Source of the DNA: Campylobacterales bacterium
Lineage (GTDB): Bacteria > Campylobacterota > Campylobacteria > Campylobacterales > QNZT01
Direction of reading: 5' to 3'
Assembly: GCA_027084135.1 (NCBI GenBank)
Contig: JALWLO010000143.1
Coordinates: forward strand, 24,523-77,013
Length of the DNA: 52,491 nucleotides
The translations under genes and the position numbers were made by a program. Shown here one piece after another: positions 1-51,287 of this stretch; within the stretch, counting starts at the first letter, position 1, and every line of letters starts with the position of its first letter. The notes under the pieces are model-generated. The model was not told where the DNA came from, made no database searches, and worked only from the letters and a program-made list of their open reading frames with translations.

Positions 1-428
1 ATATTTATATCAATTATTGTAAAATTATCCGGAGCATTTTTAAGATTTAAACCCATGGAAACGATTACGATTCGGTTGTTGATGAGAGATGTGATGAGTC
101 CGCCCGCTTTTTTATCTTTAATATAAAAGTCATTTGGCCACTTAAGCCAAACTTCACTTCCTCTCTCTTTTAGTACTAACTTCATCAGATAGGCAAAGTA
201 GATCGAAAGGGAACTAAGCGGGAGATCCTTAGGTAACTCCTCTCTATCAAGGGCAAACGATAAAAAGAGATTTCCACGCTCTCCTATCCATCTATCGCCT
301 CTCGATCCCACTCCTGCACTCTGATTTTCAGCGATAACAGCTATGGGTGCATCTAACTTACCCTCCCTAACGGCATCTATGAGATAGAGATGTGTAGAGT
401 CAATCGTATCAAATGAGAGTATCTCCAA
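1..428 (-). CDS. birA: biotin--[acetyl-CoA-carboxylase] ligase BirA, 3' end cut by window edge
   Basis: This gene is not in the ORF track because it has no stop inside the window. Hand translation of the minus strand from TTG at 428 gives [61 protein letters not shown]. These match the BirA GRGRxGRxW-type and KWPND motifs. The frame stays open to position 1. The start codon is uncertain. Confidence 0.75.
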   Translation of the reverse strand, partial: MEILSFDTIDSTHLYLIDAVREGKLDAPIAVIAENQSAGVGSRGDRWIGERGNLFLSFALDREELPKDLPLSSLSIYFAYLMKLVLKERGSEVWLKWPNDFYIKDKKAGGLITSLINNRIVIVSMGLNLKNAPDNFTIIDIN

Positions 429-1332
429 GCTCTAACCTCTTTCCTCTGATATAGGAGCGTGCATCGATCTCCTTTTTTGACGGAGCTTGGACTCTTTTTA
501 GCTTAATCGCACCTCTTTGGCAACCCACTACAACTCCCTCATCATCGATCTTCAACACTTTTCCCGCTATTTGTTTATCCTTGTCATCTATCAGTTCAAT
601 CTCTTTGAGCTTTAGTCCGCTCTCTAGCTGGACACCGGGCCAAAACTTAAAAGCCAAATATCTTCTATACAGCCTAACAGCATCACTCAAATCAACAAGC
701 GCATCACTCTTTTTGATCTTCTTACAGTAGCTGATCTCACCTCTCTGTTTTAACGGCTCTATCTTATCAAAATTTCTTAACACTTTTATCGTCAAATTTG
801 CAGCCAAGATAGAGAGTTCATCAAAGAGCGTGGGAGCATCCATACCGCCTATATCCACAACACTAAAAGCCAAGATATCTCCACTATCTAACCCCTCCTC
901 CATCAACATTGCCGTTACGCCTGAGTACCTATCACCGTTCAAGATCGCCTCTTGGATAGGACTGGCTCCTCTATATTTGGGCAAGAGAGAAGCGTGTAAA
1001 TTGATACAAGGTGCGATATTTAAAATCTCTTTCGGCAGTATCATTCCGTATGCAGCAACTACTATAAAATCGGGTTTGAATCCCTCAATAGTACGAAAGG
1101 CTTCATCACTCTTCAGCGTGGTCGGTTGATAGATAGGAATCGTACTAGCTTTTTCCAAAAGGTACGCTTTCGTATCGGGCGGAGTGAGTATCTGCTTTCT
1201 GCCGACAGGTTTATCGGGCTGGGTAATCAAAGCTACCAGATCAAAGTCGTCCCTCTCTATCAGAGCCTTTAAGATCGTTGTCGCATAAGATGGCGTTCCC
1301 ATGAAGAGAACCCGTTTTTTATCTTGGCTCAA
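409..1332 (-). CDS. fmt: methionyl-tRNA formyltransferase
   Basis: The 307 aa product has [10 protein letters not shown] at the N-terminus and the [18 protein letters not shown] formyltransferase core. An apparent TTG start overlaps the proB stop. Confidence 0.9.
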
Positions 1333-2080
1333 AGAGTGTACCTCCTTTGTGCTTATCCTCCAACAAAAAGCTCTCTACATCACTAAGATCGAAACCGCTT
1401 GCCATGAACATAGGCTTTCCTCTCTCAAGGAGAAAGTTTGCCGCCTTTAGTTTGGTGACGATCCCACCCGTAGCAAACTCTCCGTTTGGCAAGCACTCCA
1501 ACTCCAACTTCTCTTTTTCTATATTATGCACCCTTTTCAAGATCTTCGCATCACTATGTACTCTCGGATCCTTGTCATAATAGCCGTCTATATCGGATAA
1601 GATGATCAACATATCGGCATCAAAATAGTAAGCGACATGGGCTGAAAGTTGATCATTGTCGCCAAAGATTAGCTCTTCGGTTGTCGTAACATCATTTTCG
1701 TTGATGATAGGCAAGACTTTATGTTTAAGAAGCGTCTCTACCGCATCTCTCGCATGCTCAGTCCTTCTTCGTGAGTCAAAGTCATCCGCACCCAAGAGCA
1801 GTTGAGATACGACGATCTCATAACGGTCGAAACAGGCTTGGTAGACAGATATGAGATAGGGTTGTCCTACGGCGGCTAGAGCCTGTTTATTGGCAAGTAA
1901 CCTCCTATCAAGCGGCAGCTTTGTCCATCCGGCGGCAACCGCACCGGAAGAGACAAGAAGCAGTTCATATCGATCCATCGCTTTTGCAATCAGTGAACAG
2001 AGATTTTTGATCCTATCATAGGCAAGACTTCCATCTTGAGTCAAAACATGTGAACCCACTTTGATGACAACTCTCTTCAA
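1319..2080 (-). CDS. proB: glutamate 5-kinase (short form without PUA domain)
   Basis: The 253 aa product starts [14 protein letters not shown] and carries [15 protein letters not shown]. The TTG start overlaps the obg TGA as TTGA, which suggests translational coupling. Confidence 0.9.
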
Positions 2081-3177
2081 CGCTCATCCTTTTTTATTCT
2101 ATCGACAACACTATTTAAAGCATATTTGATCGCCTCTAAATTTATCTTGCTTACAGAGGATAGCGGTGCGATAAAAAAGGGCTTTTCTCTCTCATACGCA
2201 TCGATATCTTGTAAAAAGTAGCCATACGCTTCATCAAACTTATAGAGATTTTCTCCAACGCCCTCTTTCGTACTAAAGCTTGAGATAAATGCCTCTATCT
2301 CCTCTCTCTTTTGCTCTAAGTCCACCGCATCTGCTCTTGTTAAAGCGATCGCAAAGGGTCTCTCTTTTAGCGTATCGGAGAAGTTGGCTAACTCCTGCTT
2401 TAATGTCTCATACTGCGTTTGGATCTCTCTATAGTTTGCCAAATCCACCATAAAGAGCAAAAACTTTGTCCTCTCAATGTGCTTTAAAAACTCCAATCCA
2501 AGCCCTCTGCCGTCACTTGCTCCCTCTATAATACCCGGAATGTCCGCCATCACAAAAGAGCTAAACTCATCTACCTGGACTACCCCAAGCTTTGGAGTCA
2601 ATGTCGTAAACTCATAGTCGGCAATCTCCGGTTTTGCATTTGAAATAGTTGAGATCAGGGTTGATTTACCGACATTTGGGAAACCTACAAGTCCCACATC
2701 GGCGATAAGTTTGAGTTCTAGCCTTACCTTTTTAGTCTCACCCGGAAGTCCCGGTTGGGCGTAAGTCGGTCTTTGGTTCGTTGCACTTCTAAAGTGCCAA
2801 TTCCCAAGACCCCCTTTTCCACCCTTTAAAAATAGGACTTTTTCTCCATCTTCAACCAGATCAAAAAGGAGTTCCCCACTCTCCTCATCAAAGACTTGAG
2901 TGCCCGGTGGAACGACAATCGTAGCGCTTTCACCCTTTTTGCCATGCCTTTTTCTCCCCTCTCCGGGTCTACCGTTTTTTGCTTTGATGTGGTGTCTTCC
3001 TCTAAAAGCGGAGAGTGTATGTGAGTTTTTATCTACCAAAAAGTAGACATCACCTCCGTTTCCACCGTCCCCGCCGTCAGGTCCCCCCTTGACAACAAAC
3101 TTCTCTCGCCTAAAAGAGACCGCTCCGGCTCCACCTTTTCCGGAACTTACCTCGATAACGGCACTATCTATAAACAT
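2077..3177 (-). CDS. obgE: GTPase Obg/CgtA
   Basis: The 366 aa product has the glycine-rich Obg fold ([26 protein letters not shown]). It also has the G1 motif GFPNVGKST and the G3 motif DIPGIIEGA. Confidence 0.95.
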
Positions 3178-3179: not shown

Positions 3180-3189
3180 TTAGTACTAA
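3180..3189. repeat. TTAGTACTAA palindrome between the obg RBS and start codon
   Basis: The minus strand reads AAGAGG TTAGTACTAA TT ATG. This exact 10-mer marks the left edge of the polysaccharide island. Confidence 0.9.
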
Positions 3190-6304: not shown

Positions 6305-7501
6305 CTATATCGGCACTTTTGAAAAATTTTTCTCTCTTTGCATATAAAAGTAATAGATGGCATGAGAGACAAGCGATAAGGTAAACCAAAAATCTTTATG
6401 GTGAAGTGACGGTATGGTCAATCCCATGAGAATAACCGAGAGTGAGGCGATATATATCCAGATATAGTCTGATGAAAAAATCTCCCTTAAATAGGAGCTA
6501 AAAAGTGAAATGATAAAGGCAACGAAGGTGACAAAGCTAAATACTCCGCTCTCAGCGAAGATCTTGATAAAATCATTGTGAGATGGAAGCGCTTCGGGTG
6601 GAAGATAGTTTTTGATATATCCGCCTGAAACTTTTGGAAATTGAGCAAATCCGACTCCTAAAAAAAAGTTGTCTCGTATCATCTCACCACCCGCTCTCCA
6701 GATGATAAATCTCTGCTGCATCGTTCCGGTACTCTTTGCCCTCTCTTGTAAACCTTTGATAGCGGTATCTTGTTGCATATAGATAGCGGTACCTCCCATA
6801 ACGGCTACCAAAGAGAGGATGATAAGAACCCCCCTCAAATTAGCAAAATATGAGATAACGGTTTTAAATTTAGCCACAAAGAGTATCAAAAGTATGATAG
6901 CTAGTACTAAGAATGAAGATTTACTTCCCGCATATATCATGGTATAGAGGAAAAAGAGAATAGAGCCAAAAAGGAAGATCTTGCTGTGGTTCTTTTTAAA
7001 GAGATAAACGGTGATGAAAATAGCCGGCAATAACTGCGCCGCAAAGTCATTTGGATTTCCTGTACCACCAACCCTCCTAAATGTCCACTGCTCATAAGGT
7101 TGACTAAAGAAAGCGATCACTGAAGAGACGATCATGGATATCCATATCATATATAAAAGCTTTTCAAACTCTTTGGTATAGGTCACATAGATAAATATCA
7201 CTAAAAAGGAAAGCAGTCGCATAAATGCCACAACAGGCATATCCGTGATATAGATGAGATCTGATTTTGCAAAATAGGTAATGATAGTTACGATGGAGGT
7301 AACAGCGATAAAAGTCAAAAATATCTTGACCGTAAGCGTCTTTTTCTCCAAGAACATCTGATACAACTCATCGATATGTGTGATCAGAAAGAGACCGAAA
7401 GCGATTTTGATGATGGCGTTGCTTATATATTCGGTTGCAACCATATCGTTAAATGAAACAAAAATAAATATAAATAGTACAATATCTTTTATCCACTTCA
7501 T
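6305..7501 (-). CDS. O-antigen ligase/polymerase family (Wzy_C-like) membrane protein
   Basis: The 398 aa product is polytopic. It has the periplasmic-loop motif PSHNDFIKIFAESGVFSF, typical of the Wzy_C/O-antigen ligase family. Confidence 0.65.
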   Translation of the reverse strand: MKWIKDIVLFIFIFVSFNDMVATEYISNAIIKIAFGLFLITHIDELYQMFLEKKTLTVKIFLTFIAVTSIVTIITYFAKSDLIYITDMPVVAFMRLLSFLVIFIYVTYTKEFEKLLYMIWISMIVSSVIAFFSQPYEQWTFRRVGGTGNPNDFAAQLLPAIFITVYLFKKNHSKIFLFGSILFFLYTMIYAGSKSSFLVLAIILLILFVAKFKTVISYFANLRGVLIILSLVAVMGGTAIYMQQDTAIKGLQERAKSTGTMQQRFIIWRAGGEMIRDNFFLGVGFAQFPKVSGGYIKNYLPPEALPSHNDFIKIFAESGVFSFVTFVAFIISLFSSYLREIFSSDYIWIYIASLSVILMGLTIPSLHHKDFWFTLSLVSHAIYYFYMQREKNFSKVPI

Positions 7502-9564: not shown

Positions 9565-9574
9565 TTAGTACTAA
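9565..9574. repeat. TTAGTACTAA palindrome providing the rplU stop codon
   Basis: This exact 10-mer supplies the rplU TAG on the minus strand (9571-9573). It marks the right edge of the polysaccharide island. Confidence 0.9.
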
Positions 9575-10013: not shown

Positions 10014-10023
10014 CTAGTACTAA
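10014..10023. repeat. CTAGTACTAA variant of the palindrome, abutting the ridA stop
   Basis: The core TAGTACTA lies directly 3' of the ridA TAG (10024-10026 on the minus strand). Confidence 0.85.
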
Positions 10024-10538: not shown

Positions 10539-11090
10539 ATGGGTATCAGAAAATCTTTAGTACATTTTACGCTATTCGTTTCCCTCGCATCGTCACTGCA
10601 TGCGGGAAACTTCTTAGACTATATAGGTCTAGGTATTGCTTTAGAAGATGCTACTGATAGTCCAAATTTTGATACAGGAACGGCGCTAGTACTAACGACC
10701 GGTAAAAATATCTATGAAAATATCTCTTTAGAGGCGGAGGCTACAACCAGCATCGATAAGATGGATGGAAAATTTAACGGTATCAGAGATGATCTCAATT
10801 TTTGGTCATTTGGATTTTATAGTACTTATCTTTGGAAATTAGGTAATTTAAGCATCAAACCGAGAGTGGGACTTATCTATCGAAGCCTAAAGTCAGAGAT
10901 CGATATACACTCGCCGAAATATCCTGAAAATGATACGGTTTATCAAAATACCGATATTACGAAATTGGGACTAAGCGGTGGATTTGGTCTTCATTATGAA
11001 CTAGGAAAACACTATAACATCTATACAAACTATACCAAATATGAAGATGAGCTAGAACTTATCTCTTTCGGAGCGGAGTATAAATTTTAG
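10539..11090 (+). CDS. small outer-membrane beta-barrel protein
   Basis: The 183 aa product has a signal peptide ending SLHA. It shows alternating amphipathic strands and a C-terminal GAEYKF with terminal Phe. Confidence 0.65.
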   Translation: MGIRKSLVHFTLFVSLASSLHAGNFLDYIGLGIALEDATDSPNFDTGTALVLTTGKNIYENISLEAEATTSIDKMDGKFNGIRDDLNFWSFGFYSTYLWKLGNLSIKPRVGLIYRSLKSEIDIHSPKYPENDTVYQNTDITKLGLSGGFGLHYELGKHYNIYTNYTKYEDELELISFGAEYKF

Positions 11091-11947: not shown

Positions 11948-13662
11948 AATTCCTTTCTAAATTTTATCCACGCAACACCGTAAGGCTTTAGTCTTACCTC
12001 ACGGTTTTCTATTTTTTGTCGGTCAATTAATTCTACCAAATCACCCTGTACAAAAGGGGGTAATTTCACCAAAATCGACCTATTTGTAAAATTATTTAGT
12101 ACTAATATATCATTTCTACTCACTTTCGATTCTCTTAAAAGAGCAAAAACACCATCAGCTAGATCTAATATCTCAAACTTGCCATAAGGATCAAAAGCAT
12201 CCTCCTCTCTTCTTATTTTCAAGAGATGGATATATCTACTAAATATTTTATTTCTCAAAGAGCTCTCATCCTCAAGCTCTTGAACCAAATAGTCATAATT
12301 TAACTTTTCACGATTGATCGAGCGATATACTCCTGTGCGTCTTACGCCGTCTATGTCACTCGTTGAACCTACCAAAGAGTGAAAATAGACTCCCGGAACA
12401 CCCGGCATCGCCAACTTCACAGCTTGTGAAAGGATAAATTTATCCACCCTTAAATCGATCTCTTCACGCTTATCACTGATGATATCTATGTAGCTGGCAT
12501 TTAACTCATAGGGAGACTTTTCACCGTTTCCAAGAGATCTATAGGAGACAAATCCACCGTTCTTCGTCGTCTGCTCTATCAAAAGTGCGATATCCTCTTG
12601 GCTAAGCAGACCACTCACCGGTCTCACACCGCACCCGTCGTGACTTGCGGTAAAGTTGAAGAAGCAAACCTTGTCACTCGGTAATTCCAACTCTTTCGCC
12701 CACTTCGTCAAAATGGAGGTATCCCCGGTTAAGATAGCGTGAGCGGTCAAAGGGGGTAGCGCAAAGTTGTAGACCATCTGCGCCTCATCATCCCCGCTTC
12801 CAAAGTATGAGACATTCTCTTTGTGAGGCACATTTGTCTCCGTAATGATCACAACCTCCGGTGCGACCTTGTGTATCACCTCCCTCATAAGCTGTATCAC
12901 CTCATGCGTTTGAGGCAGATGGATACACTCTGTACCTATCTCTTTCCACAAAAAGGCGATCGCATCAAGACGAATGAGTTTCGCACCCTTCTCCACATAA
13001 TACAAAAGTACATCCAAAACGGCAACTAAAACTTTATAGTTCGCGTAGTTTAGATCTACCTGATCTTTAGAGAATGTTGTCCAGATATGCCTATCTCTAC
13101 CCTCAACATCTTTGTAGGTATGGATAAGCGGTAGGGTTCTTGGGCGAACCACTTTGGAGAGATCTATCCCCTCCTCCACCTCAACAAAAAAATCCTTAAA
13201 TTTTGGATCATTTTGTAAAAAGCCTTTAAACCAATAGGAGTATTGAGAGATGTGGTTGATCACCCCGTCAAACATGATATAAAAGTTCTCTCCAATCCTC
13301 TCTATATCCTCCCAAGAACCCATCCTAGGGGATACATCCTTATAGTCTATCACCGAAAAACCGTCATCGCTTGAGTATGGATAAAAGGGCAAGATGTGAA
13401 CAGAATTTATCACATCTTTGAGATAGTTCACCAAAAATGTATTCAATGCCTCAAGCGGCTCCCTCCCCACTTGAACCAACTGATCGCCGTAAGTGATCAA
13501 AATCACATCTCTTTGATCCATCTTATGAGGTCTTGAGACAACTCTCTCTTTATAGTACGCAATCAGCCGGTCTATTTCCACCTTCGCCTTTAGGGCATCT
13601 TCTCTACTATAGAGAGACTCGAGTCTCTCTTGGATACTCTTTTTGACAAAAGCGCTACTCAT
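11944..13662 (-). CDS. sucrose phosphorylase-like GH13 enzyme, probable glucosylglycerate phosphorylase
   Basis: The 572 aa product carries GH13 catalytic signatures: FDGVINHIS, IRLDAIAFLWKE, IITETNVPHKEN and FTASHDGCGV. The specificity is inferred from its position next to GpgS-like and glycerate kinase genes. Confidence 0.6.
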   Translation of the reverse strand: MSSAFVKKSIQERLESLYSREDALKAKVEIDRLIAYYKERVVSRPHKMDQRDVILITYGDQLVQVGREPLEALNTFLVNYLKDVINSVHILPFYPYSSDDGFSVIDYKDVSPRMGSWEDIERIGENFYIMFDGVINHISQYSYWFKGFLQNDPKFKDFFVEVEEGIDLSKVVRPRTLPLIHTYKDVEGRDRHIWTTFSKDQVDLNYANYKVLVAVLDVLLYYVEKGAKLIRLDAIAFLWKEIGTECIHLPQTHEVIQLMREVIHKVAPEVVIITETNVPHKENVSYFGSGDDEAQMVYNFALPPLTAHAILTGDTSILTKWAKELELPSDKVCFFNFTASHDGCGVRPVSGLLSQEDIALLIEQTTKNGGFVSYRSLGNGEKSPYELNASYIDIISDKREEIDLRVDKFILSQAVKLAMPGVPGVYFHSLVGSTSDIDGVRRTGVYRSINREKLNYDYLVQELEDESSLRNKIFSRYIHLLKIRREEDAFDPYGKFEILDLADGVFALLRESKVSRNDILVLNNFTNRSILVKLPPFVQGDLVELIDRQKIENREVRLKPYGVAWIKFRKEF

Positions 13663-32620: not shown

Positions 32621-32638
32621 TACTAACTTTAGTACTAA
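32617..32638. repeat. tandem pair of TTAGTACTAA separated by 2 nt
   Basis: The sequence is TTAGTACTAA-CT-TTAGTACTAA. Each unit is a palindrome, so the pair can also fold as a hairpin. It lies downstream of the gene ending at 32620. Confidence 0.85.
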
Positions 32639-35377: not shown

Positions 35378-36672
35378 GATATATTGTATTAGTACTAATA
35401 CCGATGCTACTCTTTGGAGAGGATCTAGCTACTTTGTTAAGATCCCTAGATCAAAATCTACTTCTACAATCCAAAGAGCAGGAGATCGTAGCAAAAAAGA
35501 GACTTTTTGAAGCCACCAAAGGTAAAAACTACCCGTCGTTAGATCTCAAAGCAACCGCAACGATGCTAAAAGATGATCCTACCGCCAATTTGCATCTTCC
35601 AATAGGTACTATGCCACCCGCTATCAAAATGGGCAAACGAGAAAATTTTGATGCCGAGATTGACCTAACTTACCCGATATTTAGCGGTTTTGCCATAGAT
35701 TCACTCATCAAAAGGTCAAAACTTGAGTATGAACAAAGCAGACTACAAAAGAGTGATCTCAAAAGAAAACTCTATATGAAAGTGATATCCCTCTACACCA
35801 CCGTTTATAGTCTAAATCGACAGCTTTTAGCTCAAAAAGAGGCAATCAACGCTACGCAAAAATCATACAAAAAAGCAAAAGGCTTTTACCAAGCTCAAAC
35901 AATCAATTTGGCGGAACTCTCAAATATCGAGGCGAAGCTCTATGAGTTAAAAGCCGGTTACGAACTTTTAAAAAGCAAAAGAGATGAGGCACTTGAGATG
36001 CTCTCATATTTCGTGAATAAAAAGATAACACAGATCGGCTCTCTTCCAAAGATCGATCTCCCTTCCAAAGACAACATTACCAAAACCGCTCTAAATAACA
36101 GAGAGGATATCTTAGTACTAAAAAAACTTCTCGAGATAGATAGCGTCGATATAGACCTTGCCAAAAGTAAAAACTACCCTACCCTTGCACTGGTAGGAGC
36201 ACTCAAAACACACGGCGATGATCTGAAGTTTTACGGAGACGGTTACACCAATCCAAACAAAAGCTATATCGGTGCGGCTTTGAATTATAAGCTATTTGAC
36301 GGATTTGAGACCAAACAGAAGATAGAGGTGACAAAGGCAAAAAGGTTGGCAAGGATTTTATACTTTAAGGACTATCAAAACAGCATAAAAGCAACACTCA
36401 GATCCAAACTGCTCTATCTCAAGGCACTAAAGAGTGAACTAAGGGCAAAACGGGGTCAGTTAAAGGCACAAAATAGCTACTATAAGCTCACTTACGGAAG
36501 GTTTATCAACCATCTTGCATCAAGCGATGAGTTAAGCAGAGCGATCGCCGCCAAAGCCGTAGCAAAAGCGAGCTATCACCAAATCGAGGCGAAGATATTT
36601 GAACAAAAGGCTTTGATACTGCTTGAGAGTTCGTTGAAAAAGTTTTCAAAATACTTTTTTACTAACAATTAA
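35374..36672 (+). CDS. TolC-like outer-membrane efflux protein
   Basis: The 432 aa product has a signal peptide and two repeats of the OEP helical/beta architecture. Its ATG overlaps the upstream TGA. Confidence 0.75.
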   Translation: MRYIVLVLIPMLLFGEDLATLLRSLDQNLLLQSKEQEIVAKKRLFEATKGKNYPSLDLKATATMLKDDPTANLHLPIGTMPPAIKMGKRENFDAEIDLTYPIFSGFAIDSLIKRSKLEYEQSRLQKSDLKRKLYMKVISLYTTVYSLNRQLLAQKEAINATQKSYKKAKGFYQAQTINLAELSNIEAKLYELKAGYELLKSKRDEALEMLSYFVNKKITQIGSLPKIDLPSKDNITKTALNNREDILVLKKLLEIDSVDIDLAKSKNYPTLALVGALKTHGDDLKFYGDGYTNPNKSYIGAALNYKLFDGFETKQKIEVTKAKRLARILYFKDYQNSIKATLRSKLLYLKALKSELRAKRGQLKAQNSYYKLTYGRFINHLASSDELSRAIAAKAVAKASYHQIEAKIFEQKALILLESSLKKFSKYFFTNN

Positions 36673-39897: not shown

Positions 39898-41157
39898 ATG
39901 AGATTTGAGCACTTAAATTCACTTGATAGTGAGACGATTTTAAAAGAGTTGGGTAGTGAGCCCTCCAAAAGCGTTGCCGCAACAGCTCTATCAAAACTAA
40001 AAATACCGGATAAAAAAACGGAAAAGTATAGATATTTTGATATCACTCCTATCGTCTCAAAAGATTGGGATATCCTTGAAACAAAAGAGAGTAGCCCAAA
40101 ATCTACCGGTAATAAAATAGTATTGCAAGATGGAGCAGTGATAAATAGCGGCGATATAGAGGGTGTCAGTGTAGAGATCAAAGCCTTTAGCGAGATAGAC
40201 CCCACACACTTTGACGCACTCTATTACCTTAGTCACTTGATGGCAAAAAAGGCTATCGTTATCCACTGCGGTAAGGATTGCAGTTTTGAGATAGAGCATA
40301 TCTTTAGTACGAAAGAGCATCTTATCAACTATCGAGTCGTTTTGGTCGTAGAGCCAAATGTTCATGCCCAAGTCTATGAGAGCTTTATGGGTGAAGCGGT
40401 GGATAGTTTAGTACTAAGCGGTTATGACATCTTTGTAGAGAGGGATGCTTCGCTTCACTTGATCAAAAGCCATACCTTAAATGATGCCCACTACACGCCG
40501 ATATTTACAAGCAGGTACAGGGTAGATGAAAATGCAACGATGAAACTCAGTAGCTTTGATTTTTCTTTTGCTAAAGGGCTAAATATCTTCAAAGCTTACC
40601 TTGAAAAAGATGCCGCTTTTGATGCCGCCCATCTGCTCTATGTGGATAATAGCGCCAAGTACGGTATAGTCTCCGAAATAGAGCATCAAGGACGAAGCTC
40701 ACACTCAAACCAAAAAGCAAAGTCTATCTTAGATAATAGTGCCAAGGGGATATTTGACGCTCTGATCAGGGTAAACAATAGTGCAAAATGGACAAAAGCC
40801 CACCAAAACTCTAAAGCGATCCTGCTTCATAGCGGTGCCTATATGACGAGCAAACCGCAACTTGAGATATATATCGACGATCTGGAAGCGAGCCACGGCT
40901 CTACAACAGGACAGCTTGATGAGAGGCAGCTCTTTTACCTACGTTCAAGAGGTATCAATGAGGAGGATGCGAGAAAGATGCTTATCTTGGCATTTGCCAA
41001 TGAGATCGTCTCAACCGTAGAAGATAAAGAGTTAGCCGGTAGGATATATGTAGAGTTTGAGAGGGTATATTACGGCAACTATGAGCTTGAGTGCATCAAA
41101 ACTTGCGACGGCTGTGAAGAGTTAGTACTAGGAGAGAGCAGTGAAGACGATAGATGA
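39898..41157 (+). CDS. sufD: Fe-S cluster assembly protein SufD
   Basis: The product has the SufB/D beta-helix family C-terminus (LEASHGSTTGQLDERQLFYLRSRGI). I chose the ATG at 39898. The track uses an upstream alternative start inside sufC. Confidence 0.85.
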   Translation: MRFEHLNSLDSETILKELGSEPSKSVAATALSKLKIPDKKTEKYRYFDITPIVSKDWDILETKESSPKSTGNKIVLQDGAVINSGDIEGVSVEIKAFSEIDPTHFDALYYLSHLMAKKAIVIHCGKDCSFEIEHIFSTKEHLINYRVVLVVEPNVHAQVYESFMGEAVDSLVLSGYDIFVERDASLHLIKSHTLNDAHYTPIFTSRYRVDENATMKLSSFDFSFAKGLNIFKAYLEKDAAFDAAHLLYVDNSAKYGIVSEIEHQGRSSHSNQKAKSILDNSAKGIFDALIRVNNSAKWTKAHQNSKAILLHSGAYMTSKPQLEIYIDDLEASHGSTTGQLDERQLFYLRSRGINEEDARKMLILAFANEIVSTVEDKELAGRIYVEFERVYYGNYELECIKTCDGCEELVLGESSEDDR

Positions 41158-41569
41158 GGTATTAAATGAGTACAAGAGTGATTTTGAACTCTTTGAGGAT
41201 GGAAACTCAAAGTTAGAGTATATATTTGACCTTGGGAAGAGACATACCACTCTGCCTGAAGATGAAAAAAATGATAGCACCTTTATACACGGATGTGCAT
41301 CTCCCGCTTGGCTCGTGGGTGAGTGCAAAGACGGGGTATTAGTACTAAGGGGTGAGGGAACCAGTGAGATGGCAAAGGGTATGATCGTTTTGCTGATGGA
41401 TATATTTAGCAATAAAAAGGCAGACGATATCCTAAACTTCGATCCAAACAGACTCAATGAACTCGGCATCATAGAGCTTCTCTCACCCGTTAGACAAAAG
41501 AGTCTTCAATCTTTCCTAGAGAAGGTTTACACTTATGCAAAACGATGCAAGGAGGGAACACTATCATGA
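41141..41569 (+). CDS. sufE: SufE-like sulfur acceptor protein
   Basis: The 142 aa product has the active-site loop FIHGCASPAWL. Its GTG start follows GGAGAG and overlaps the sufD 3' end. Confidence 0.8.
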   Translation: MKTIDEVLNEYKSDFELFEDGNSKLEYIFDLGKRHTTLPEDEKNDSTFIHGCASPAWLVGECKDGVLVLRGEGTSEMAKGMIVLLMDIFSNKKADDILNFDPNRLNELGIIELLSPVRQKSLQSFLEKVYTYAKRCKEGTLS

Positions 41570-44162: not shown

Positions 44163-45691
44163 CTCTCAATCACCTTTATCAAAACTACTCCTCTTTTGCT
44201 ATAAATCGTCTCATATTTTTTAAAGTATTTTAGTCTATTGCTCTTAATCAAAGCACACTCCCCCGCTTTCGCATCTCTTCTTTTGACAATTTTTCTCGCA
44301 TAAAAGCTAAAGCTCGGTACATTGATATGCTCCATCACGATCTTGCATTGAAGCTCTCTTGCTTTGAGCGCCGCCTCCTTGATCGGTGTCTGCTTCGCTT
44401 GAGCCACCACCGGCAAGATTATGAGATTTATCACCCCGCTAAAAAGTAATCCTATAACAACTATCTTAAAATATATCTCTCTTTTACTCATCCCCACAAG
44501 CAGAGTGCCCAAGATAGCCCCTATCAAGCCCAAAAAGTAGCGCCGATCAAACAGCCCAAGCGACTCTCGTACGATCACCTTCGCATACGCATCTCTTATC
44601 TGCTCCACCCCGCCAAACTGTAGATAAAGCGGTAGTACCAAAAGCAAAATATAGAGTACTAAGGGAGCGATATAAAAGTTCCCGCTACGCTCTATCACCT
44701 CCCCCCTCAATGCCGTCAAAACAAACAACCCGGTATAACCGTAGATGACATAGTGCGGCAGTTTCGTACCCGATAGCGAAAAAAACAAAAAGACAAAGCC
44801 GAACCATATCACCGCATAGAGCGTCAAATCATCTTTGAGTCTCTTTTTCAGCGCATCAAAGAGAGCTCTTAGGTAGATAGTACTAAAGGGTAAAAGTCCG
44901 ATGATTAAAACCGGGATATAGTAAAACATCGAGCCGTAATGCCCCTCCATCGGTCCCTTAAAGCGCTCCACATTGTGCTTCAAGAAAAAGCCCTCAATAA
45001 ACTTTTGCCCCTGGGCGTGGTACTCAGCCAAGTACCAAGGAAGAGTCACCGCCAAAAATATCACGATACCGATAGGATTTAACAAAGCGCTCCACCAAGC
45101 ACCAAACTCCCTTTTGGATAGGAAAAATATCCCGCTTACCACAAAGGGTATCAACACTGCAATCGGTCCTTTTGTCAGTACGCCAAGCCCCATAAAGAGG
45201 TATGTTAGATAGATAAACTTTCTCTCTCTATTTTCATAATAGAGATAAATATTAAAGAGCGTAAGAGCGATGAAGAGATTTAGGAGTGCGTCGGCGATAG
45301 AGGCTTTGGCGATGATCGTTATCTGAAGCAGTACACTCATCATAAATGCACCAAGAAGCGCCCTCTTCTCATCGGCATATCTCTTTACAAAGCGATAGAG
45401 AACATAAACCCACAGCGTCGCCGCTACCGCCGAAGGAAACCTAACGGCAAACTCATTTAAACCGAATATCTTCGTACTAAGCGCCTGAAACCAGTAGATG
45501 AGTATCGGCTTGTCAAACCTAAGCTCTCCGTTTAGATAGGTCGTGATATAGTCTCCGCTTTTGAGCATCTCTCTTGTGGCTTCGCTAAACGCCCCCTCAT
45601 CCAGATCAAAGAGCGCAATCCAACCAAGCGTGAGATAGAAACTCAAAAATATCCCCGCAAATAGCGCTATCCTCAAAGCAAATATACTCAC
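44159..45691 (-). CDS. ArnT/PMT-like (GT39/GT83) membrane glycosyltransferase, copy 1
   Basis: The 510 aa product is polytopic. It has the N-terminal loop motif DLDEGAFSEATREMLKSGDY..FDKPILIYW. Confidence 0.8.
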   Translation of the reverse strand: MSIFALRIALFAGIFLSFYLTLGWIALFDLDEGAFSEATREMLKSGDYITTYLNGELRFDKPILIYWFQALSTKIFGLNEFAVRFPSAVAATLWVYVLYRFVKRYADEKRALLGAFMMSVLLQITIIAKASIADALLNLFIALTLFNIYLYYENRERKFIYLTYLFMGLGVLTKGPIAVLIPFVVSGIFFLSKREFGAWWSALLNPIGIVIFLAVTLPWYLAEYHAQGQKFIEGFFLKHNVERFKGPMEGHYGSMFYYIPVLIIGLLPFSTIYLRALFDALKKRLKDDLTLYAVIWFGFVFLFFSLSGTKLPHYVIYGYTGLFVLTALRGEVIERSGNFYIAPLVLYILLLVLPLYLQFGGVEQIRDAYAKVIVRESLGLFDRRYFLGLIGAILGTLLVGMSKREIYFKIVVIGLLFSGVINLIILPVVAQAKQTPIKEAALKARELQCKIVMEHINVPSFSFYARKIVKRRDAKAGECALIKSNRLKYFKKYETIYSKRGVVLIKVIER

Positions 45692-46290: not shown

Positions 46291-46936
46291 GCCTCGCCTC
46301 TTTTTTGTAGATGAGATAATATACCAGCTTTAAGATTATAAAATTGACAATGATGGCAAAGAGTACATCACTCAAAAAGTGCGCCCCTTGAACCACACGG
46401 GTAAGTGCCATCAAAGCCACAAATGAGAGGCTTAGTACTAAGATAAGCCGATTTCTAAACACATAAGCCAACGCCAAAAAGAACATCGCCCCTCCTACAT
46501 GTCCGCTGATAAATGAACAGTTGTGGTCGCACTTGCCGCTAAAGTCATAGTATGGAGTAAACTTATGCTCTCCTCCAAAAAATTTACTATTTACGGGTCT
46601 TACTCTCCCGCTATACTCTTTAAAAACCAGATTTGTCACCACTGCGGGACCCGTTATGAGATAAACAAGCAAAAAAATAGCGGCTTTTTTATCGAGATAT
46701 TTGCCTATTTTTCTCCCTTTATAGGTATATATCAAAAGTGCGAGAAGTACGATCACCGTCACTATCGTCAGCGGCACAATCACATCATGCATAAACTCAA
46801 AAATCGGCTCATGCTTCAAAAAAAACTCCCCATCTCTGTAAAACAACTTACTTACAAAGATATCTAGCTCCGGAAAGCATGCAAATACCACCGCCACAGC
46901 TACGGAAAAGAGTATAAAAAGTCTCCCAAACATCAA
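46280..46936 (-). CDS. PAP2-family lipid phosphatase, copy 2
   Basis: The product has the PAP2 motifs KEYSGRVRP, SGH and TRVVQGAHFLSD. Confidence 0.85.
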   Translation of the reverse strand: MMFGRLFILFSVAVAVVFACFPELDIFVSKLFYRDGEFFLKHEPIFEFMHDVIVPLTIVTVIVLLALLIYTYKGRKIGKYLDKKAAIFLLVYLITGPAVVTNLVFKEYSGRVRPVNSKFFGGEHKFTPYYDFSGKCDHNCSFISGHVGGAMFFLALAYVFRNRLILVLSLSFVALMALTRVVQGAHFLSDVLFAIIVNFIILKLVYYLIYKKEARLEE

Positions 46937-48387
46937 TACCCCTTAAACCCGACGCAGTGAAAGAGATAGTAGGTTCTATTGAAATCGCTATATAACGGCA
47001 CGACCACTTTTCCTACCTTTCCCACCTTCTCAAAGTACGGTAAAAGATCGCCCATCTCATCCAAAGTGCGAAAGAGTAGAAAATCCTCACCCTTTTTCTC
47101 ATTTAAGTCTCTATCCATATGGTATTGATTCTCCATCTCATGGCGGGGATTGAATATATATGTCTTAGTACTAAGGTAATAATCCGCCTCAGCCACATCG
47201 GCTCTTCTTGTAGCTAAAAGTGTAGTATTTGGATATCTCTCTCTCCATATATCGCCGATCTGATGAAGAGCATCTCTCCAGCCAAGCACCCTTTTATAGG
47301 GGTCACTTTTTCTAGTCAGCTCTATATGAAGGGCGTCAGCTATCTGATGGTAGTTATAAAAAACGACGCCAAGCAGAGTGTGCAAAAGGATAGAGAGCCA
47401 AACCAGCCACACTTTGCCCTTTAGTACCAAATAGGCAACGACCAAGATAGTAGCGGCGATATAGGTCGGTGCCGCCCAGTTGGCAAACGAGCGGCTAAGG
47501 AAGCTTAGCACCATGATAAACCCAAGCATCACAATCGCAAACAAAAAGAGTATCAACCCCCTCTCATCCCTTAAAAACTCCCTATCTCTCAAAAGGATAT
47601 ACCAAAAAGCCCCAAACAAAATAGGTCCAAAGACTATAAACTGCGCTCCGAAAAACTCAAAAAATTTATTTGGATGTAGCCAGCTATCCTCTATGTGCGA
47701 AATCTGCTTGGTATGGACAAAAGAGATAAAGTCATTGTTGTAATTCCACCAGAGATTTGGCAAAAAGAGCACAAAAGCTATCAAGATAGCGGTGTAGAGT
47801 TTCGTGCTTCTAAAATAGAGGCGATATTTTGGCATGAGTACTAAGGTTAGTACGACGCTTACCAAAAAGAGTATAAAGTTATATTTACTCAAAAGCCCGA
47901 AGCCCGAAGCCACTCCCGCAAATATCCAATCCGACCATCTATCATACCGAATCGCTCTGATAAAGAAGTAAAAAGCCGCCGACCAAAAGAGCAACAAAAC
48001 GGTATCGGTTGAGATGATCATACTCGAGAGCCAAACAGACGGCAGGGTAAAAAATGTGAGAGCCGAATAGAAGGCAACTCTCGGGTTAAAGAGCTCTTTG
48101 GCAATGAGATAGATAAAGAGTGTCGTGATGGGGTATGTAAGCTCTGCCCCAAGCTTAATAGCAAAGATGGAATCTCCGAATAGTTTGGTCGTAAGAGCTA
48201 TCAAGAGTGAGAGCATCGGGGGTTTTGAGTAGTAGCCCAAATCCAGATGCTTCGCCCAGTTGTAGTAGTAGGCTTCGTCAAAGTAGAGATCACTCTTCAT
48301 ATCGCCAAGAACCAAGAGTCTATAAAGCCAGATGATAGCCACGACCATAAAGAGTAGCGTTCCCCACTCCCCCTCTCTAATCCGCAT
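46933..48387 (-). CDS. ArnT/PMT-like (GT39/GT83) membrane glycosyltransferase, copy 2
   Basis: The 484 aa product is polytopic. It has the N-terminal motif YFDEAYYYNWAKHLDLGYYSKPPM. Confidence 0.8.
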   Translation of the reverse strand: MRIREGEWGTLLFMVVAIIWLYRLLVLGDMKSDLYFDEAYYYNWAKHLDLGYYSKPPMLSLLIALTTKLFGDSIFAIKLGAELTYPITTLFIYLIAKELFNPRVAFYSALTFFTLPSVWLSSMIISTDTVLLLFWSAAFYFFIRAIRYDRWSDWIFAGVASGFGLLSKYNFILFLVSVVLTLVLMPKYRLYFRSTKLYTAILIAFVLFLPNLWWNYNNDFISFVHTKQISHIEDSWLHPNKFFEFFGAQFIVFGPILFGAFWYILLRDREFLRDERGLILFLFAIVMLGFIMVLSFLSRSFANWAAPTYIAATILVVAYLVLKGKVWLVWLSILLHTLLGVVFYNYHQIADALHIELTRKSDPYKRVLGWRDALHQIGDIWRERYPNTTLLATRRADVAEADYYLSTKTYIFNPRHEMENQYHMDRDLNEKKGEDFLLFRTLDEMGDLLPYFEKVGKVGKVVVPLYSDFNRTYYLFHCVGFKGY

Positions 48388-49297
48388 CTTTGCCTTCCTC
48401 TTTTAAAAGTTTTGCCCAAAGATATGTCAAAGCTTCACCTGCAATAGTGATCAGCCTATAGATAATAGCCGCAGCTAGTACTAGCTCCTCTCTTATACCC
48501 GCCATTCCCGGTATCAATAGGATATAGATACTCTCTCTCACTCCAAGACCACCCGGAGCTCCCGGCAATACAAATCCAAACAGCCAAGCGATAAGGGCGA
48601 TAAAGAGCATCTCAAAAAATTGCGTCGTATCCATCTCCACCGACAAAAAGAGTTTAAATACGAAAACAAAGAGTGAGGCAGATATGAGCAAAAAGATCGT
48701 GTGATAAAGTAGTACTAAGAGTATCGTACCCGGATCGAAATGCTTTTTTAGCCCAAATCTACCCCTTCCAAAATATAAAATTGCTCCGACTGTTGCTATC
48801 ATTGAGAGAAACAGCGCTACCAAAACGCTATTTGCAATCTCAAATCCAAAGAGTGAAAAGCTAAAATTGACAAAAAAAGTACCTACAAATAGCAAAAGCA
48901 GGGCACTAAAGAGCATGATAAAAACTTCAAGTGTGTTTGAGAGTAGGATATTTTTATGAGTTGTATGCTCTTTATCTATCAAAGCGTGTCTGCCGAGAAA
49001 GTGAAAAACATTTCCGGGAAGATACTTAAAGATCACACTTGTGAGATAGGCACTAAAGACATCTCTCTTGAAAGGCTTTTTTGAGAGCATCTCAAGCAGA
49101 CGCTTCCACGAGTATGCTAAAAAAAAGTAACTGAGTGAAAATATCAAAGAGAACAGTATAAACTTAACGATCCAGCTAGTGTCATAGCGTTCAACCACTC
49201 TTGTAAAGTCAAGCTTTGTGACAAGATAGGCTAAAAAGATAAAGGATAGAAGGACAGCGCCCCTACCGAAATAGCTTGCTAACTCTCTAATCGCCAT
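48377..49297 (-). CDS. UPF0104 / lysyl-PG-synthase-TM-like flippase-type membrane protein
   Basis: The 306 aa product has about 8 TM segments and the [11 protein letters not shown] motif typical of this family. The function is inferred from context. Confidence 0.5.
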
Positions 49298-50279
49298 TGA
49301 AGTATAAGAGTGCGGAGCCCCAAGTTAAACCGCCGCCGAATGTATCAAGAAGCAGGAGGTCGCCGTTTTTTATCTTTCCATCTTCGTACCAATTATTTAG
49401 TGCCATCGGTATAGAAGCGGCAGAGGTGTTTCCATACTTTTCAACCGTTAGTACCACTCTATCTTCACTCATACCCAACTTTTTCGCCACCGCACTGATG
49501 ATCCTATAGTTTGCTTGGTGAGGTACAAACCAATCTATATCTTCACTTTTGATATCGTTATTTTTCAATATCTCAAAAACATCTTGCGTCAATGTATTGA
49601 CTGCCAGTTTAAAGGTCTCATTTCCTTTCATTTTAAGATATTGTAATCCATTTTTTAAAACATCTTTAGAACAAGGATTTCTACTACCACACGCTTCAGT
49701 CACCAAAAAGTCTTGATACTCTCCATCGCTTGATGATTTCACATCCAAGATGGATCTGCTTTTATCATCCGTCGCACCTATGATAGCAGCTCCGGCACCG
49801 TCTCCAAATAGCACACAAGTCGTTCTATCGTTATAGTCGACGATGGAGCTCATCTTCTCCGCACCGATAATCAGCACATGTTTTCGCATACCGGACTCTA
49901 TCATCGATTTGGCGATATTGAGTGCATATACAAAACCGCTACACGCCGCACTGATATCGAAAGCCATCGCACCCTTTATACCAAGCTTATCTGCCACTAC
50001 ACAGGCGGTTGATGGCATACAGAAGTAGTCCGGAGTGATCGTAGCGCATATAATCGCGTCCACTTCATCTCTTGAGATACCGGCTCTATCGATGGCGACC
50101 TTTGCGGCTTCATACGCCATATCGCTTGTGTATTCGTCATCTCTTGCTAGATACCTGCTCTTTATACCGGTTCTCTGCACGATCCACTCGTCACTCGTAT
50201 CGACCATCTTTTCAAGATCGCTGTTGGTGAGTTTTTTCGAGGGGATATATGCACCTATCGATTTCAGTGACGCAAACAA
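49287..50279 (-). CDS. fabH: 3-oxoacyl-ACP synthase III
   Basis: The 330 aa product has the active-site [10 protein letters not shown], plus HQANYRI and GNTSAASIP. It has a TTG start after AAGGAAGAG. Confidence 0.92.
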
Positions 50280-50291
50280 AGCTCTTCCTTA

Positions 50292-51287
50292 CTATTTTGA
50301 ATATTTTACTATATTTTTCGTTATATCACTATTGATATCTGACTCAACAAAGTTGATCGCTTGATAGATTGCGTTTTTGATAGCTTTTGGATTGCTTTTA
50401 CCGTGACATATGATCGCGCATCCATCTATCCCGATAAGCGGAGCGCCGCCATACTCGGCATAATCCATCTGTTTCTTTAAAAGTTTAAAGACTCTTCTCA
50501 TCAGTAGTGCGCCAGTGAGGGCTGTCGGAGATTTTTTGATATTTTGTTTGATCATCTTAGAGATAGAGCTTGCAACACCCTCACTCGCCTTTAGTACGAT
50601 ATTACCGGTAAATCCATCGCATACGATCACATCGACACTTCCGTTAAAGATATCGCTTCCCTCTACATTGCCGACAAATGAGGGAAGCGCTTTGAGAAGT
50701 TTAAAAGCCTCTTTGGTAAGTTCGTTACCTTTTCCCTCCTCTTCGCCGTTTGCAAGAAGCCCTACTCTGATATTCTCTTTTTTGAGTACATCCTTGAGGT
50801 ATGCTTCTCCCATGATAGCAAATTGAAAGAGATGCTCGGGTTTGCAGTCGGTATTTGCACCCACATCTAGTACTAAGCTATTTGCACCCGTTTGAGTCGG
50901 CATGAGTGTCGCGATGGCGGGTCTAAGCACCCCTTCAACTCTACCTATGCGAAGTGTTGCCAGACTCATGGTCGCACCGCTATGACCGGCACTCACAACT
51001 GCGTCAGCTTCACCGTTTCTCACAAGATCGACCGCTTTGTATATCGTTGAGTTTTTTCTTTTTAATACTTCAGTAGCGCTCTCATCCATCCCAAATAGAT
51101 CATCGCACTCTACGATATCGATATATTTGGCAACTCTCTTTGGTATACGATGGGCAAATGTCGACTCTTTGCCGACAAGTATAGCGTTAAACTTCTCTTT
51201 TCTCTTTTTCAGCGCGTGGACTACACCGTCAACAATCGGAAGAGGACCAAAGTCCCCACCCATTGCATCTACTGCTATTTTTTTCAT
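50292..51287 (-). CDS. plsX: phosphate acyltransferase PlsX
   Basis: The 331 aa product contains [12 protein letters not shown] and GFTGNIVLK. Confidence 0.92.

Follow-up and report, generated by a model that had tools for sequence, protein, structure and literature searches.

A palindromic decamer in large excess across 52 kb of an isolated Sulfurovaceae lineage

Distribution of the word in genes and spacers

The analysed stretch of DNA (52,491 nucleotides, hereafter the window) belongs to an isolated, Sulfurovum-like, deep-sea-vent lineage of the Sulfurovaceae (Campylobacterota), whose closest SufD among 5.8 billion proteins is 73% identical. The original prediction had correctly assumed Campylobacterota. 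Scattered through the window are 17 exact copies of the palindrome TTAGTACTAA and 30 copies of its core TAGTACTA (the 17 decamers plus 13 variants), which corresponds to one decamer per 3.1 kb and one core per 1.75 kb. Both lists coincide with the original prediction, every coordinate of the exact copies being correct. By context, 18 cores encode Leu-Val-Leu (LVL), 5 Ser-Thr, and 7 are intergenic or overlap stop codons; the two coding frames had been recognised previously, but with a slightly different tally (about 19, 4 and 7). Positions of copies are given below without strand.

Exact copies encoding LVL are found at 170..179 in an ORF (3-428, -), at 12096..12105 in an alpha-amylase-family gene (11944-13662, -), at 16311..16320 in a HAD hydrolase gene (16111-16854, -), at 23651..23660 close to the N-terminus in a gene of unknown kind (23079-23681, -), at 32745..32754 in the N-terminal hydrophobic segment of a HlyD-family gene product (32682-33842, +), at 46432..46441 in a PAP2 gene (46280-46936, -), and twice in an outer-membrane efflux gene (35374-36672, +), where 35389..35398 lies in the signal peptide and 36112..36121 is the second copy. 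Two more, at 40408..40417 and 41339..41348, belong to sufD and sufE. Variant cores in the same frame comprise CTAGTACTAA in a Wzy-like gene (6901..6910; 6305-7501, -), an OMP beta-barrel gene (10686..10695; 10539-11090, +) and plsX (50867..50876; 50292-51287, -); TTAGTACTAG in a glycerate-kinase-like gene (15455..15464; 14871-16121, -), an M20 peptidase gene (18375..18384; 18109-19203, -) and sufD (41122..41131); and CTAGTACTAG (48475..48484) together with a second copy, GTAGTACTAA (48709..48718), in an LPG-synthase-like gene (48377-49297, -).

In the Ser-Thr frame, TTAGTACTAA is read as Phe-Ser-Thr-Asn in a PKD/Lcl surface protein gene (27349..27358; 25632-27989, -), as Leu-Ser-Thr-Lys in a PMT_2 gene (47165..47174; 46933-48387, -) and as Val-Ser-Thr-Lys in ORF 19288-19650(+) (19505..19514), the last assignment being uncertain because ORF 19203-19544(-) overlaps it. 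The other two copies are GTAGTACTAC in gene 23790-24428(+) (24367..24376) and ATAGTACTAA in a PMT_2 glycosyltransferase gene (44877..44886; 44159-45691, -).

Non-coding DNA makes up about 5% of the window and holds 7 of the 30 copies, so that the word is about 6 times denser there than in coding DNA. Upstream of obg (2077-3177, -), the intergenic TTAGTACTAA at 3180..3189, read directly from the sequence, occupies the whole spacer from an AAGAGG Shine-Dalgarno to the ATG. Another decamer (9565..9574) overlaps the rplU stop codon (9571-9879, -), and CTAGTACTAA at 10014..10023 adjoins the stop codon of a RidA/L-PSP gene (10024-10452, -). The remaining 4 of the 30 form two tight hairpin pairs at gene ends: GTAGTACTAA-TAG-TTAGTACTAC (25605..25627), located between convergent genes, with its first copy overlapping the stop codon of 24418-25608(+) and 12-15 bp paired in its hairpin (-15 to -16 kcal/mol, z -4.5/-6.5), and TTAGTACTAA-CT-TTAGTACTAA (32617..32638; -10 kcal/mol), in which the stop codon of 32030-32620(+) is again overlapped by the first copy. 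Both pairs had been called terminator-like; the hairpins are real, but neither is followed by a T-tract and a consensus scan calls neither terminator-like.

Abundance and shape of the word

The window would be expected to contain only 0.05-0.1 decamers and 0.8-1.3 cores. A trivial origin in base composition, codon usage, a common peptide or a mobile repeat might be imagined, as LVL is a common hydrophobic tripeptide and TTA, GTA and CTA are all codons in use. However, dinucleotide shuffling yields on average 0.05 decamers (maximum 1) and 0.83 cores (maximum 4), and an order-3 Markov model with a strand-collapsed count predicts 0.07 decamers, a 232-fold excess; across the estimates the decamer excess is 170-232-fold. 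Genes contain 23 cores, whereas 1000 synonymous-codon shuffles, in which protein sequences and codon usage stay unchanged, place 1.19 +/- 1.10 there (never more than 6). The enrichment claimed originally is confirmed, and the excess is independent of codon usage and protein sequence. When the k-mers of the window are ranked, as had been proposed, the word comes first among the outliers for k=8, 10 and 12. It also occupies a second frame and non-coding DNA, and identical copies are present in independent assemblies. The sequences flanking the copies are unrelated to each other, so the word is not a REP, MITE or IS end, as had been argued before. An artefact of this kind is accordingly rejected, with a residual probability that is practically negligible. 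All word counts come from 52 kb of one genome, and a genome-wide spread is an extrapolation.

The excess falls steeply with mismatch load, from 170x through 9.7x and 1.3x to about 1x, a type of gradient ascribed elsewhere to molecular drive (Bakkali 2007). Deviations are position-specific, the fuller form being [T>C>G]T[A>c]GTAC[T>g]A[A>G>C], and the accepted changes are particular transversions (A->C at position 3) rather than deamination products. A 9/10 variant, TTMGTACKAA, recurs in 5 one-sided copies against 0.07 expected: TTCGTACTAA at 2267..2276 and others at 16039, 22150, 40304 and 45471; three of the five are spelled xTT AGT ACG AAx and encode [FL]-S-T-K. Among the near-matches listed previously, the one placed at 47420 starts at 47421. 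In the IVL and VVL tripeptides of the window, an ATA or GTA first codon never precedes GTA CTA, so the decamer's outermost positions matter as well. In the reading preferred below, the word would be recognised by a DNA-binding activity that is sequence-specific and probably dimeric.

Effect on coding sequence

LVL sites are nearly saturated with the word. The codon check suggested earlier, run on the window, finds the core (YTA-GTA-CTA) in 18 of the 23 LVL tripeptides, and 22 of the 23 are within one mismatch of the word. The spelling had been thought to be always TTA-GTA-CTA; in fact, 14 copies have this form and 4 are CTA-GTA-CTA. All six [FLIV]-S-T-[NK] tetrapeptides are spelled xTT AGT AC[T/G] AAx. 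Moreover, LVL itself is about twice as frequent as expected (23 vs 11.6), and a similar approximate doubling is known for tripeptides encoded by uptake sequences (Findlay & Redfield, PMC2817400).

Comparison with orthologues shows that some copies in the conserved Suf proteins arose through amino-acid replacements derived in this lineage. In SufD, an F->L replacement (TTT -> TTA) made the copy at 40408, where homologues have S-F-[VI]-L, and in SufE an I/H->V replacement made the copy at 41339, relatives having L-I-L or L-H-L. At the second sufD copy, LVL is also present in some relatives, one of which (L001) spells it TTA GTA TTA.

Known recognition words and the possible mode of spread

The closest quantitative counterparts of the word are the uptake sequences DUS (Neisseriaceae) and USS (Pasteurellaceae), and the closest anatomical one is HIP1 of cyanobacteria (GCGATCGC / GGCGATCGCC), which the original prediction had not considered. 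With DUS/USS the word shares a length of 9-12 nt, a copy roughly every 1-3 kb, a more than 100-fold excess, a mismatch-load gradient with approximately doubled tripeptides (PMC2817400, PMC1939737), and coding copies in permissive frames. DUS/USS are overrepresented in non-coding DNA, and some 10% of them occur as inverted repeats (PMC1939737), which resembles the gene-end pairs and non-coding enrichment described above. Published fold excesses are 145 for ACAAGCGGTC and 1128 for GGCGATCGCC, but only 5.7 for Chi (table in PMC1939737), so the value for the word lies in the range of uptake sequences and HIP1. The hallmarks on which the original prediction based its DUS/USS reading thus stand, while other features depart from it. 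No palindrome occurs among the known DUS and USS, as is made explicit in PMC1939737, whereas the word is symmetric; they are common to a family as dialects, unlike the word; and its hairpin pairs, unlike theirs, are devoid of T-tracts. Uptake bias has been demonstrated experimentally for DUS/USS, with ComP as the DUS receptor.

Like the word, HIP1 is perfectly palindromic over 8-10 bp and is scattered as single copies in genes and spacers, the flanks being unrelated; it skews codon and tripeptide usage toward AIA as the word does toward LVL, and both contain classical Type II or methyltransferase targets. Transformation/uptake, Chi-like and nucleoid roles have been proposed for it (PMC5861425; PMC4390886; bioRxiv 2024.09.10.611283; 2026.06.24.733823). 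The word differs in sequence (AT-rich, with a GTAC centre), phylum and a somewhat lower density (one core per 1.75 kb vs up to >1 per gene), and has no known counterpart of the HIP1-associated methyltransferases DmtA and DmtC. A structural or functional site of this type, read by an abundant nucleoid or chromosome-organising dimer or by an orphan methyltransferase and kept by selection at each of some 1000 sites per genome, seems rather unlikely, though it is the most serious competitor. Besides the palindrome, it would accommodate an excess comparable to the 15-300-fold or more reported for HIP1 (PMC5861425), and the tolerance profile, which resembles a protein recognition site; since phages and unrelated genomes carry iteron- or operator-like arrays of the same decamer, dimeric proteins are evidently able to read it. 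On the other hand, selection per site would have to exceed the cost of replacing a conserved SufD Phe, spacing within the 52 kb is like random (CV 0.84; P=0.21), and no candidate binding protein or methyltransferase is encoded in the window. Xu et al., who favour selection and a nucleoid role for HIP1, rely chiefly on the conservation of sites between species (PMC5861425). HIP1 is conserved across most of its phylum, whereas no sampled relative (SufD identity <=73%) carries the word.

The core contains GTAC and AGTACT, classical Type II targets (RsaI, ScaI). Biased intracellular repair or gene conversion, VSP-like and tied to a cognate methyltransferase or nuclease, might multiply the word without DNA uptake. 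HIP words have been linked to orphan methyltransferases recognising internal sequences (Elhai 2015, PMC4390886), and GATC avoidance differs sharply among relatives (2-6 per 21 kb in L003 and L128 vs 288 per 52 kb in the host window), so methylation and restriction-modification regimes vary in the clade. Nevertheless, this route looks improbable: the known VSP systems act on a single base of their site and yield less than about 2-fold excess, whereas here all ten positions are driven to some 200-fold, the accepted transversions are not what deamination would leave, and the window has no gene of the required methyltransferase or nuclease type.

Less probable still is that the word marks self DNA or recombination hotspots in the manner of Chi, being read by AddAB/RecBCD-type helicase-nucleases, from either side owing to its symmetry. 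Chi is also a short, lineage-specific word occurring every few kilobases and interacting with recombination machinery, the decamer and E. coli Chi (1008 per 4.6 Mb; PMC1939737) have similar densities, and of the two mechanisms proposed for HIP1 one is Chi-like. But Chi words, at 5-8 nt, are asymmetric and show strand bias, their excess being only about 5-fold (5.7x, PMC1939737) rather than about 200x, and no report has them doubling encoded tripeptides or saturating synonymous sites.

We tentatively prefer a lineage-private recognition word spread by directional molecular drive, most likely through a bias in uptake or recombination, although this falls short of an even chance. The points counted in its favour are the excess, the mismatch gradient, the LVL doubling, the near-uniform spelling of LVL and Ser-Thr sites, the constraint on the outer bases, the derived Suf changes, the non-coding excess, the hairpin pairs and the absence of the word from relatives, some of them from the same vents. 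A directional process would have multiplied the word over the chromosome (extrapolating from 52 kb), turning near-matches into matches wherever protein coding permits. Most likely this would be natural transformation: if word-bearing conspecific DNA were favoured in uptake or recombination, match-improving alleles would displace others over generations. Because the word is palindromic, the site may be recognised in methylated form, as are the CtsM-methylated RAATTY of Campylobacter jejuni (PMC8468864) and, as now proposed, HIP1 (bioRxiv 10.1101/2024.09.10.611283; 10.64898/2026.06.24.733823). RAATTY comes from the same phylum, but it is a short degenerate 6-mer, frequent by composition and neither hyper-enriched nor in need of drive. 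Given the new HIP1 proposal, the methylation-linked word or binding site offered originally as an alternative may still apply.

Against the uptake reading stand the symmetry, the pairs lacking T-tracts, the missing family dialects, and the window itself, where genes for DNA uptake, its receptor, competence or a methyltransferase are all lacking. We know of no report of natural transformation in Sulfurovaceae, and DNA-uptake or HIP1-type words are not known to have been described before in Campylobacterota. Conservation in related genomes, proposed earlier as a check, was not seen: 185 kb from 21 related loci contain no decamer and 2 cores, and no sampled relative has a dialect, so that the word appears lineage-private. 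Some of these word-less relatives share the same vent metagenomes with the host, and a private word amid them would limit exchange to conspecifics.

Abundance and placement of the palindrome

All 17 exact copies of the palindrome TTAGTACTAA listed in the original prediction were found in place in the window, against a mean of 0.05 in dinucleotide-preserving shuffles. The count of 30 copies of its 8-bp core TAGTACTA (the 17 decamers plus 13 variants with one or both outer bases changed) was reproduced as well, the same shuffles averaging 0.83 and never exceeding 4. Among all k-mers of the window scored with an order-3 Markov model, those belonging to the word ranked first at k = 8, 10, and 12, with a 232-fold excess of the decamer; the model was trained on the word-containing window itself, so that this estimate is conservative. 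Across estimates, the decamer excess in these 52.5 kb lies between 170- and 232-fold. Over-representation declines steeply with mismatch load, from 170-fold for the exact word to 9.7-fold, 1.3-fold, and about 1-fold for one, two, and three mismatches.

The excess goes decisively beyond codon usage, a point the original prediction had left to be checked: 23 cores are observed in genes, whereas 1000 synonymous-codon shuffles, in which the proteins and overall codon usage are fixed and only synonymous codons are permuted, yield 1.19 ± 1.10 (maximum 6). Chance, base composition, and codon usage are thus excluded as the cause by the shuffles, the Markov model, and the protein-preserving shuffle, and a peptide-level cause, i.e., a frequent peptide motif, is excluded too. 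No conserved column was found outside the decamer in the 20 bases on either side of the core, so the copies do not derive from a longer repeat, whether as its ends or as pieces of it. REP, MITE, or IS termini would have long conserved flanks and be located mainly outside genes; with 23 of the 30 copies inside genes and in frame, such an origin is rejected, in agreement with what had been claimed. An assembly artifact is excluded because three assemblies made independently from vent samples (ERZ23491300, ERZ23491667, and SRR13622958) contain identical contigs.

Placement was assessed on a simple gene model that takes the longest ORFs free of overlap and accounts for 95% of the window. Within genes, 18 copies are read as YTA-GTA-CTA (Leu-Val-Leu, LVL) and five as AGT-ACT (Ser-Thr), while none occupies the third frame, which would read TAG, a stop codon; the avoidance of this frame stands as predicted, with slightly different numbers for the other two (about 19 and four had been claimed). 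The remaining seven copies are non-coding or overlap or abut a stop codon. They fall into about 2.5 kb of non-coding DNA, which corresponds to roughly six times the coding density, and in four or five of them the word's own TAA or TAG serves as, or adjoins, the stop codon of a gene (rplU, a RidA-like gene, and the genes at 24418-25608 and 32030-32620). One copy forms the spacer between the Shine–Dalgarno sequence of obg and its ATG. At 19505, the copy is overlapped by opposite-strand ORFs, 19288-19650(+) and 19203-19544(-), in the region 19203-19650; because of this overlap, and with no family match for either ORF, the Ser-Thr frame at this site is uncertain. Five of the 30 copies lie in an envelope-modification cluster (43230-49297) that encodes a GT2 glycosyltransferase, two ArnT-like PMT_2 glycosyltransferases, two PAP2 phosphatases, and an LPG-synthase-like membrane protein.

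Along the window, no regularity of spacing was detected (CV 0.84, compared with 0.97 in simulations; P = 0.21). Only two pairs depart from random spacing, their copies being separated by gaps of just 12 and 13 bp (P about 0.04); both are located at gene 3′ ends and fold into strong hairpins of -10 to -16 kcal/mol. These inverted pairs, which hold 4 of the 30 copies, had been described as terminator-like; their hairpin form and position were upheld, but both are devoid of a T-tract and neither was called by a terminator scan.

The codon-choice test suggested along with the original prediction, run here on the window, came out in its favor: 18 of the 23 LVL tripeptides carry the core, where codon usage predicts 0.3, and 22 are at most one mismatch away from it. 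The tripeptide itself is twofold more frequent than the amino-acid composition would give (23 observed against 11.6). Likewise, [FLIV]-S-T-[NK] tetrapeptides are written xTT AGT AC[T/G] AAx in six cases out of six. None of the IVL (14 cases) and VVL (10 cases) tripeptides uses ATA or GTA followed by GTA CTA, though such spellings are compatible with the core, so the outer bases of the decamer appear to be part of the recognized word. The one-mismatch spectrum is position-specific: the first base is replaced by C in 7 copies (0.04 expected) and by G in 3, the third base is replaced by C in 5 copies (0.07 expected), and positions 2, 4, and 5 tolerate essentially no substitution; the degenerate consensus is [T>C>G]T[A>c]GTAC[T>g]A[A>G>C]. 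The profile resembles the specificity of a protein that recognizes two half-sites rather than random decay, in which transitions would be favored.

Origin of copies in sufD and sufE and distribution of the word

The comparison with orthologues covers three copies, all in sufD and sufE. At 40408 (sufD), the window encodes S-L-V-L-S-G-Y (AGT TTA GTA CTA AGC), while most of the 45 aligned homologues have S-F-[VI]-L, with few exceptions including A-L-I-L and C-L-I-L; the word at this site was therefore made by a derived F→L replacement together with synonymous changes. At 41339 (sufE), L-V-L stands against L-I-L or L-H-L in relatives, and at 41122 (sufD), where LVL is common to some relatives, a synonymous TTA→CTA change alone sufficed. 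The 9/10 variant at 40304 reads TTT AGT ACG AAA (F-S-T-K), and homologues have F-S-K or F-S-Q there. The process therefore works at the DNA level, takes synonymous sites first, and has the strength to overwrite residues of conserved proteins.

SufB and SufD put the organism in the Sulfurovaceae (Campylobacterota), the named matches being Sulfurovum, Nitratifractor, and hydrothermal-vent metagenomes. Judged by SufD, this is an isolated lineage, its closest match among 5.8 billion proteins having 73% identity. The check for conservation of the word in related genomes, suggested along with the original prediction, gave a negative result: 185 kb over 21 Sulfurovaceae loci, including MAGs from the same samples and the cultured Nitratifractor salsuginis, hold 2 cores and no decamers, whereas about 105 cores are predicted at the density of the window, and no substitute dominant palindrome was found in these loci. 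Relatives without the word include GCA_027034975.1, GCA_027081355.1, and GCA_054007315.1. A metagenome scan with SufD and look-ups of homologue contigs brought up no word-bearing relatives. There is no strain-level polymorphism among the other assemblies, which are identical to the window except for a scaffold gap, and the contigs with identical proteins all end at about the same place. The original observation is upheld, and the feature is real, strong, and specific to this lineage.

A scan of a genome collection for two decamers at most 30 nt apart returned at least 103 stretches. Among the matches listed, all come from unrelated taxa, in which the decamer is present only as the pair itself or in local arrays with a 21-22-bp period, and no second lineage with dispersed copies is found among these stretches. 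Local arrays of 4-10 copies spaced by about 21-22 bp were seen in unrelated Bacteroidota genomes (L044, L077, L020, L099, and L101) and in the phage contigs L146, L154, and L141. A scan of viral contigs likewise gave only clustered, iteron-like copies, apart from scattered ones in a single contig. By their layout, the clustered copies elsewhere look like iterons or operators, and the Bacteroidota and phage arrays look like those for a dimeric DNA-binding protein, not like dispersed words. The viral contig with scattered copies, L139 (IMGVR_UViG_3300000228_000003), bears 7 cores in 14.5 kb (2327-13868) in the LVL and Ser-Thr frames; it is AT-rich (32% GC), and since the word is not among its top Markov outliers, these copies are probably compositional. 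A literature search on the word and on uptake sequences in Campylobacterota found nothing.

Relation to known genomic words and possible mechanisms

To our knowledge, very strong over-representation is established for just three kinds of genomic words, namely the uptake sequences of Neisseriaceae (DUS) and Pasteurellaceae (USS) and the cyanobacterial palindrome HIP1, whose function has been disputed for 30 years. DUS and USS are hyperabundant words of 9-12 nt, occurring about once per kb in more than 100-fold excess, and the 17 decamers and 30 cores in 52.5 kb are comparable; the 170-232-fold excess found here stands beside 145-fold for the uptake sequence ACAAGCGGTC and 5.7-fold for Chi (PMC1939737). 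The gradient with mismatch load is common to DUS/USS, where it is ascribed to molecular drive, and to the word; a non-coding excess has also been reported for DUS/USS, with inverted pairs accounting for about 10% of copies (PMC1939737) against 4 of 30 here. Tripeptides encoded by uptake sequences are about doubled, at replaceable residues (PMC2817400), and the proteome is similarly reshaped here, with LVL doubled and derived F→L and I/H→V replacements. In DUS/USS, inverted pairs also act as transcription terminators, and word-bearing DNA is preferentially taken up through a dedicated receptor, with competence genes present. The DUS/USS interpretation offered in the original prediction is partly supported: it agrees with the excess, the mismatch gradient, the tripeptide doubling, the non-coding excess, and the share of inverted pairs, but two features speak against it: DUS/USS are asymmetric words present in both orientations and not palindromes (PMC1939737), whereas TTAGTACTAA is a perfect palindrome, and their dialects are common to a family, whereas the word is absent as a decamer from the sampled loci of Sulfurovaceae relatives. 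Among the published uptake-sequence properties compared, palindromy is the sole clear mismatch.

HIP elements are perfect palindromes of 8-10 bp that are hyperabundant and dispersed, with unrelated flanks, and the word fits this description; the decamer/octamer structure and codon bending are further features common to HIP1 and the word, while the sequence (GCGATCGC in HIP1) and the host (cyanobacteria there, Sulfurovaceae here) differ. HIP elements also have cognate orphan methyltransferases, which methylate sequences inside the word, as well as sites conserved between genomes and a periodicity of 10-90 kb; in the window, local spacing is about random, and no second genome bearing the word was found. 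HIP1 is 15-300-fold over-represented, and a role in nucleoid organization has been argued for it (PMC5861425), as has a link to a methyltransferase (PMC4390886). [quoted passage not shown] The population-genetic footprint of the word is that of a DUS or USS, and its anatomy resembles that of HIP1. A HIP1-like binding site maintained by selection is considered unlikely. A Chi-like palindromic site is very improbable, Chi being an asymmetric, strand-biased 5-8-mer in about 5-fold excess (PMC1939737), whereas the word, a palindrome of 10 bp, shows an excess of about 200-fold. The word is not assigned to DUS/USS because asymmetry and family-wide sharing fail, nor to HIP1 because the sequence and the host do not correspond; it is best called a "hyperabundant genomic recognition word", the first found for Campylobacterota in the literature searched.

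The reading preferred here, offered tentatively and with less than even confidence, is that the word is a putative recognition site of a lineage-specific DNA-reading activity. Conspecific DNA bearing the word would be preferentially taken up or recombined, which is most probably the driving step, with methylation perhaps involved in the reading, and the word would accumulate by molecular drive. Searching the genes of the window with Pfam and NCBIfam revealed none for a methyltransferase, restriction, competence, or a pilin. A by-product of intracellular biased repair tied to a methyltransferase or nuclease is a doubtful alternative, even less probable than a selected binding site, and the remaining probability belongs to mechanisms not yet imagined.

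It is possible, though short of probable, that natural transformation in one vent-dwelling Sulfurovaceae lineage has recently come to use a palindromic self-recognition word of the lineage's own, which is probably read by way of methylation. This would then be the first DUS/USS-like system in Campylobacterota and an independent second origin of a HIP1-type element, recent enough that relatives in the same samples are without it; since they are, the word would be a barrier to gene flow private to this lineage. An uptake word of this kind would account in part for the genetic distinctness of many Sulfurovum-like species within the same vent fluids. The word has been driven strongly enough to overwrite conserved residues, at a cost to proteins. 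A second hyperabundant palindrome, in another phylum and in one lineage, provides a natural comparison between a word-bearing genome and co-occurring word-free sisters, which could reveal the word-creating gene, be it a methyltransferase, a pilin, a receptor, or a repair enzyme. The word is also a near-perfect barcode for binning the contigs of the organism.

Other signals and neighboring loci

The HIP1 octamer itself is present in 7 copies in the window (2345, 4266, 12956, 14430, 30330, 35087, and 36541) against a shuffle mean of 0.46. All seven are in the frame GCG-ATC-GCN (Ala-Ile-Ala, AIA); this tripeptide is observed 14 times against 5.9 expected, and GCG ATC is used in 7 of the 14 against 2.1 by codon usage. 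The octamer may be a second, weaker driven palindrome, borderline after correction for 256 palindromic octamers; the signal is weak and separate from TTAGTACTAA.

The window shows no avoidance of GATC (288 copies in 52 kb), which is near-absent in loci of close relatives, with 2 copies in 21 kb of L003, 6 in 21 kb of L128, and 1 in 14 kb of L114, a contrast indicating that the restriction or methylation regime differs sharply within the clade. Several other 6-bp palindromes, among them CAATTG, GTTAAC, TTCGAA, and GTATAC, are under-represented in the window.

A compatible-solute-type gene cluster at 11099-18096 encodes a glucosyl-3-phosphoglycerate synthase (13655-14866), an alpha-amylase-family enzyme, a DUF4147/MOFRL glycerate kinase, a HAD phosphatase, a phosphoglucose isomerase, and a nucleotidyl transferase. 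Of two toxin-antitoxin-type loci (21687-22883 and 42610-43233), one comprises a HipA-family kinase and the other a DUF6364 plus PIN-domain pair adjoining the suf operon; PIN genes are found beside sufB also in the relatives L003, L128, and L129. In L128 (GCA_054007315.1), the region directly upstream of sufB (815-9364) carries T4SS genes (VirB4, VirB3, and TrbC), IS200/IS605 TnpA and TnpB, and AbiEii, which suggests that the sequence upstream of sufB is a mobile-DNA hotspot in the clade.
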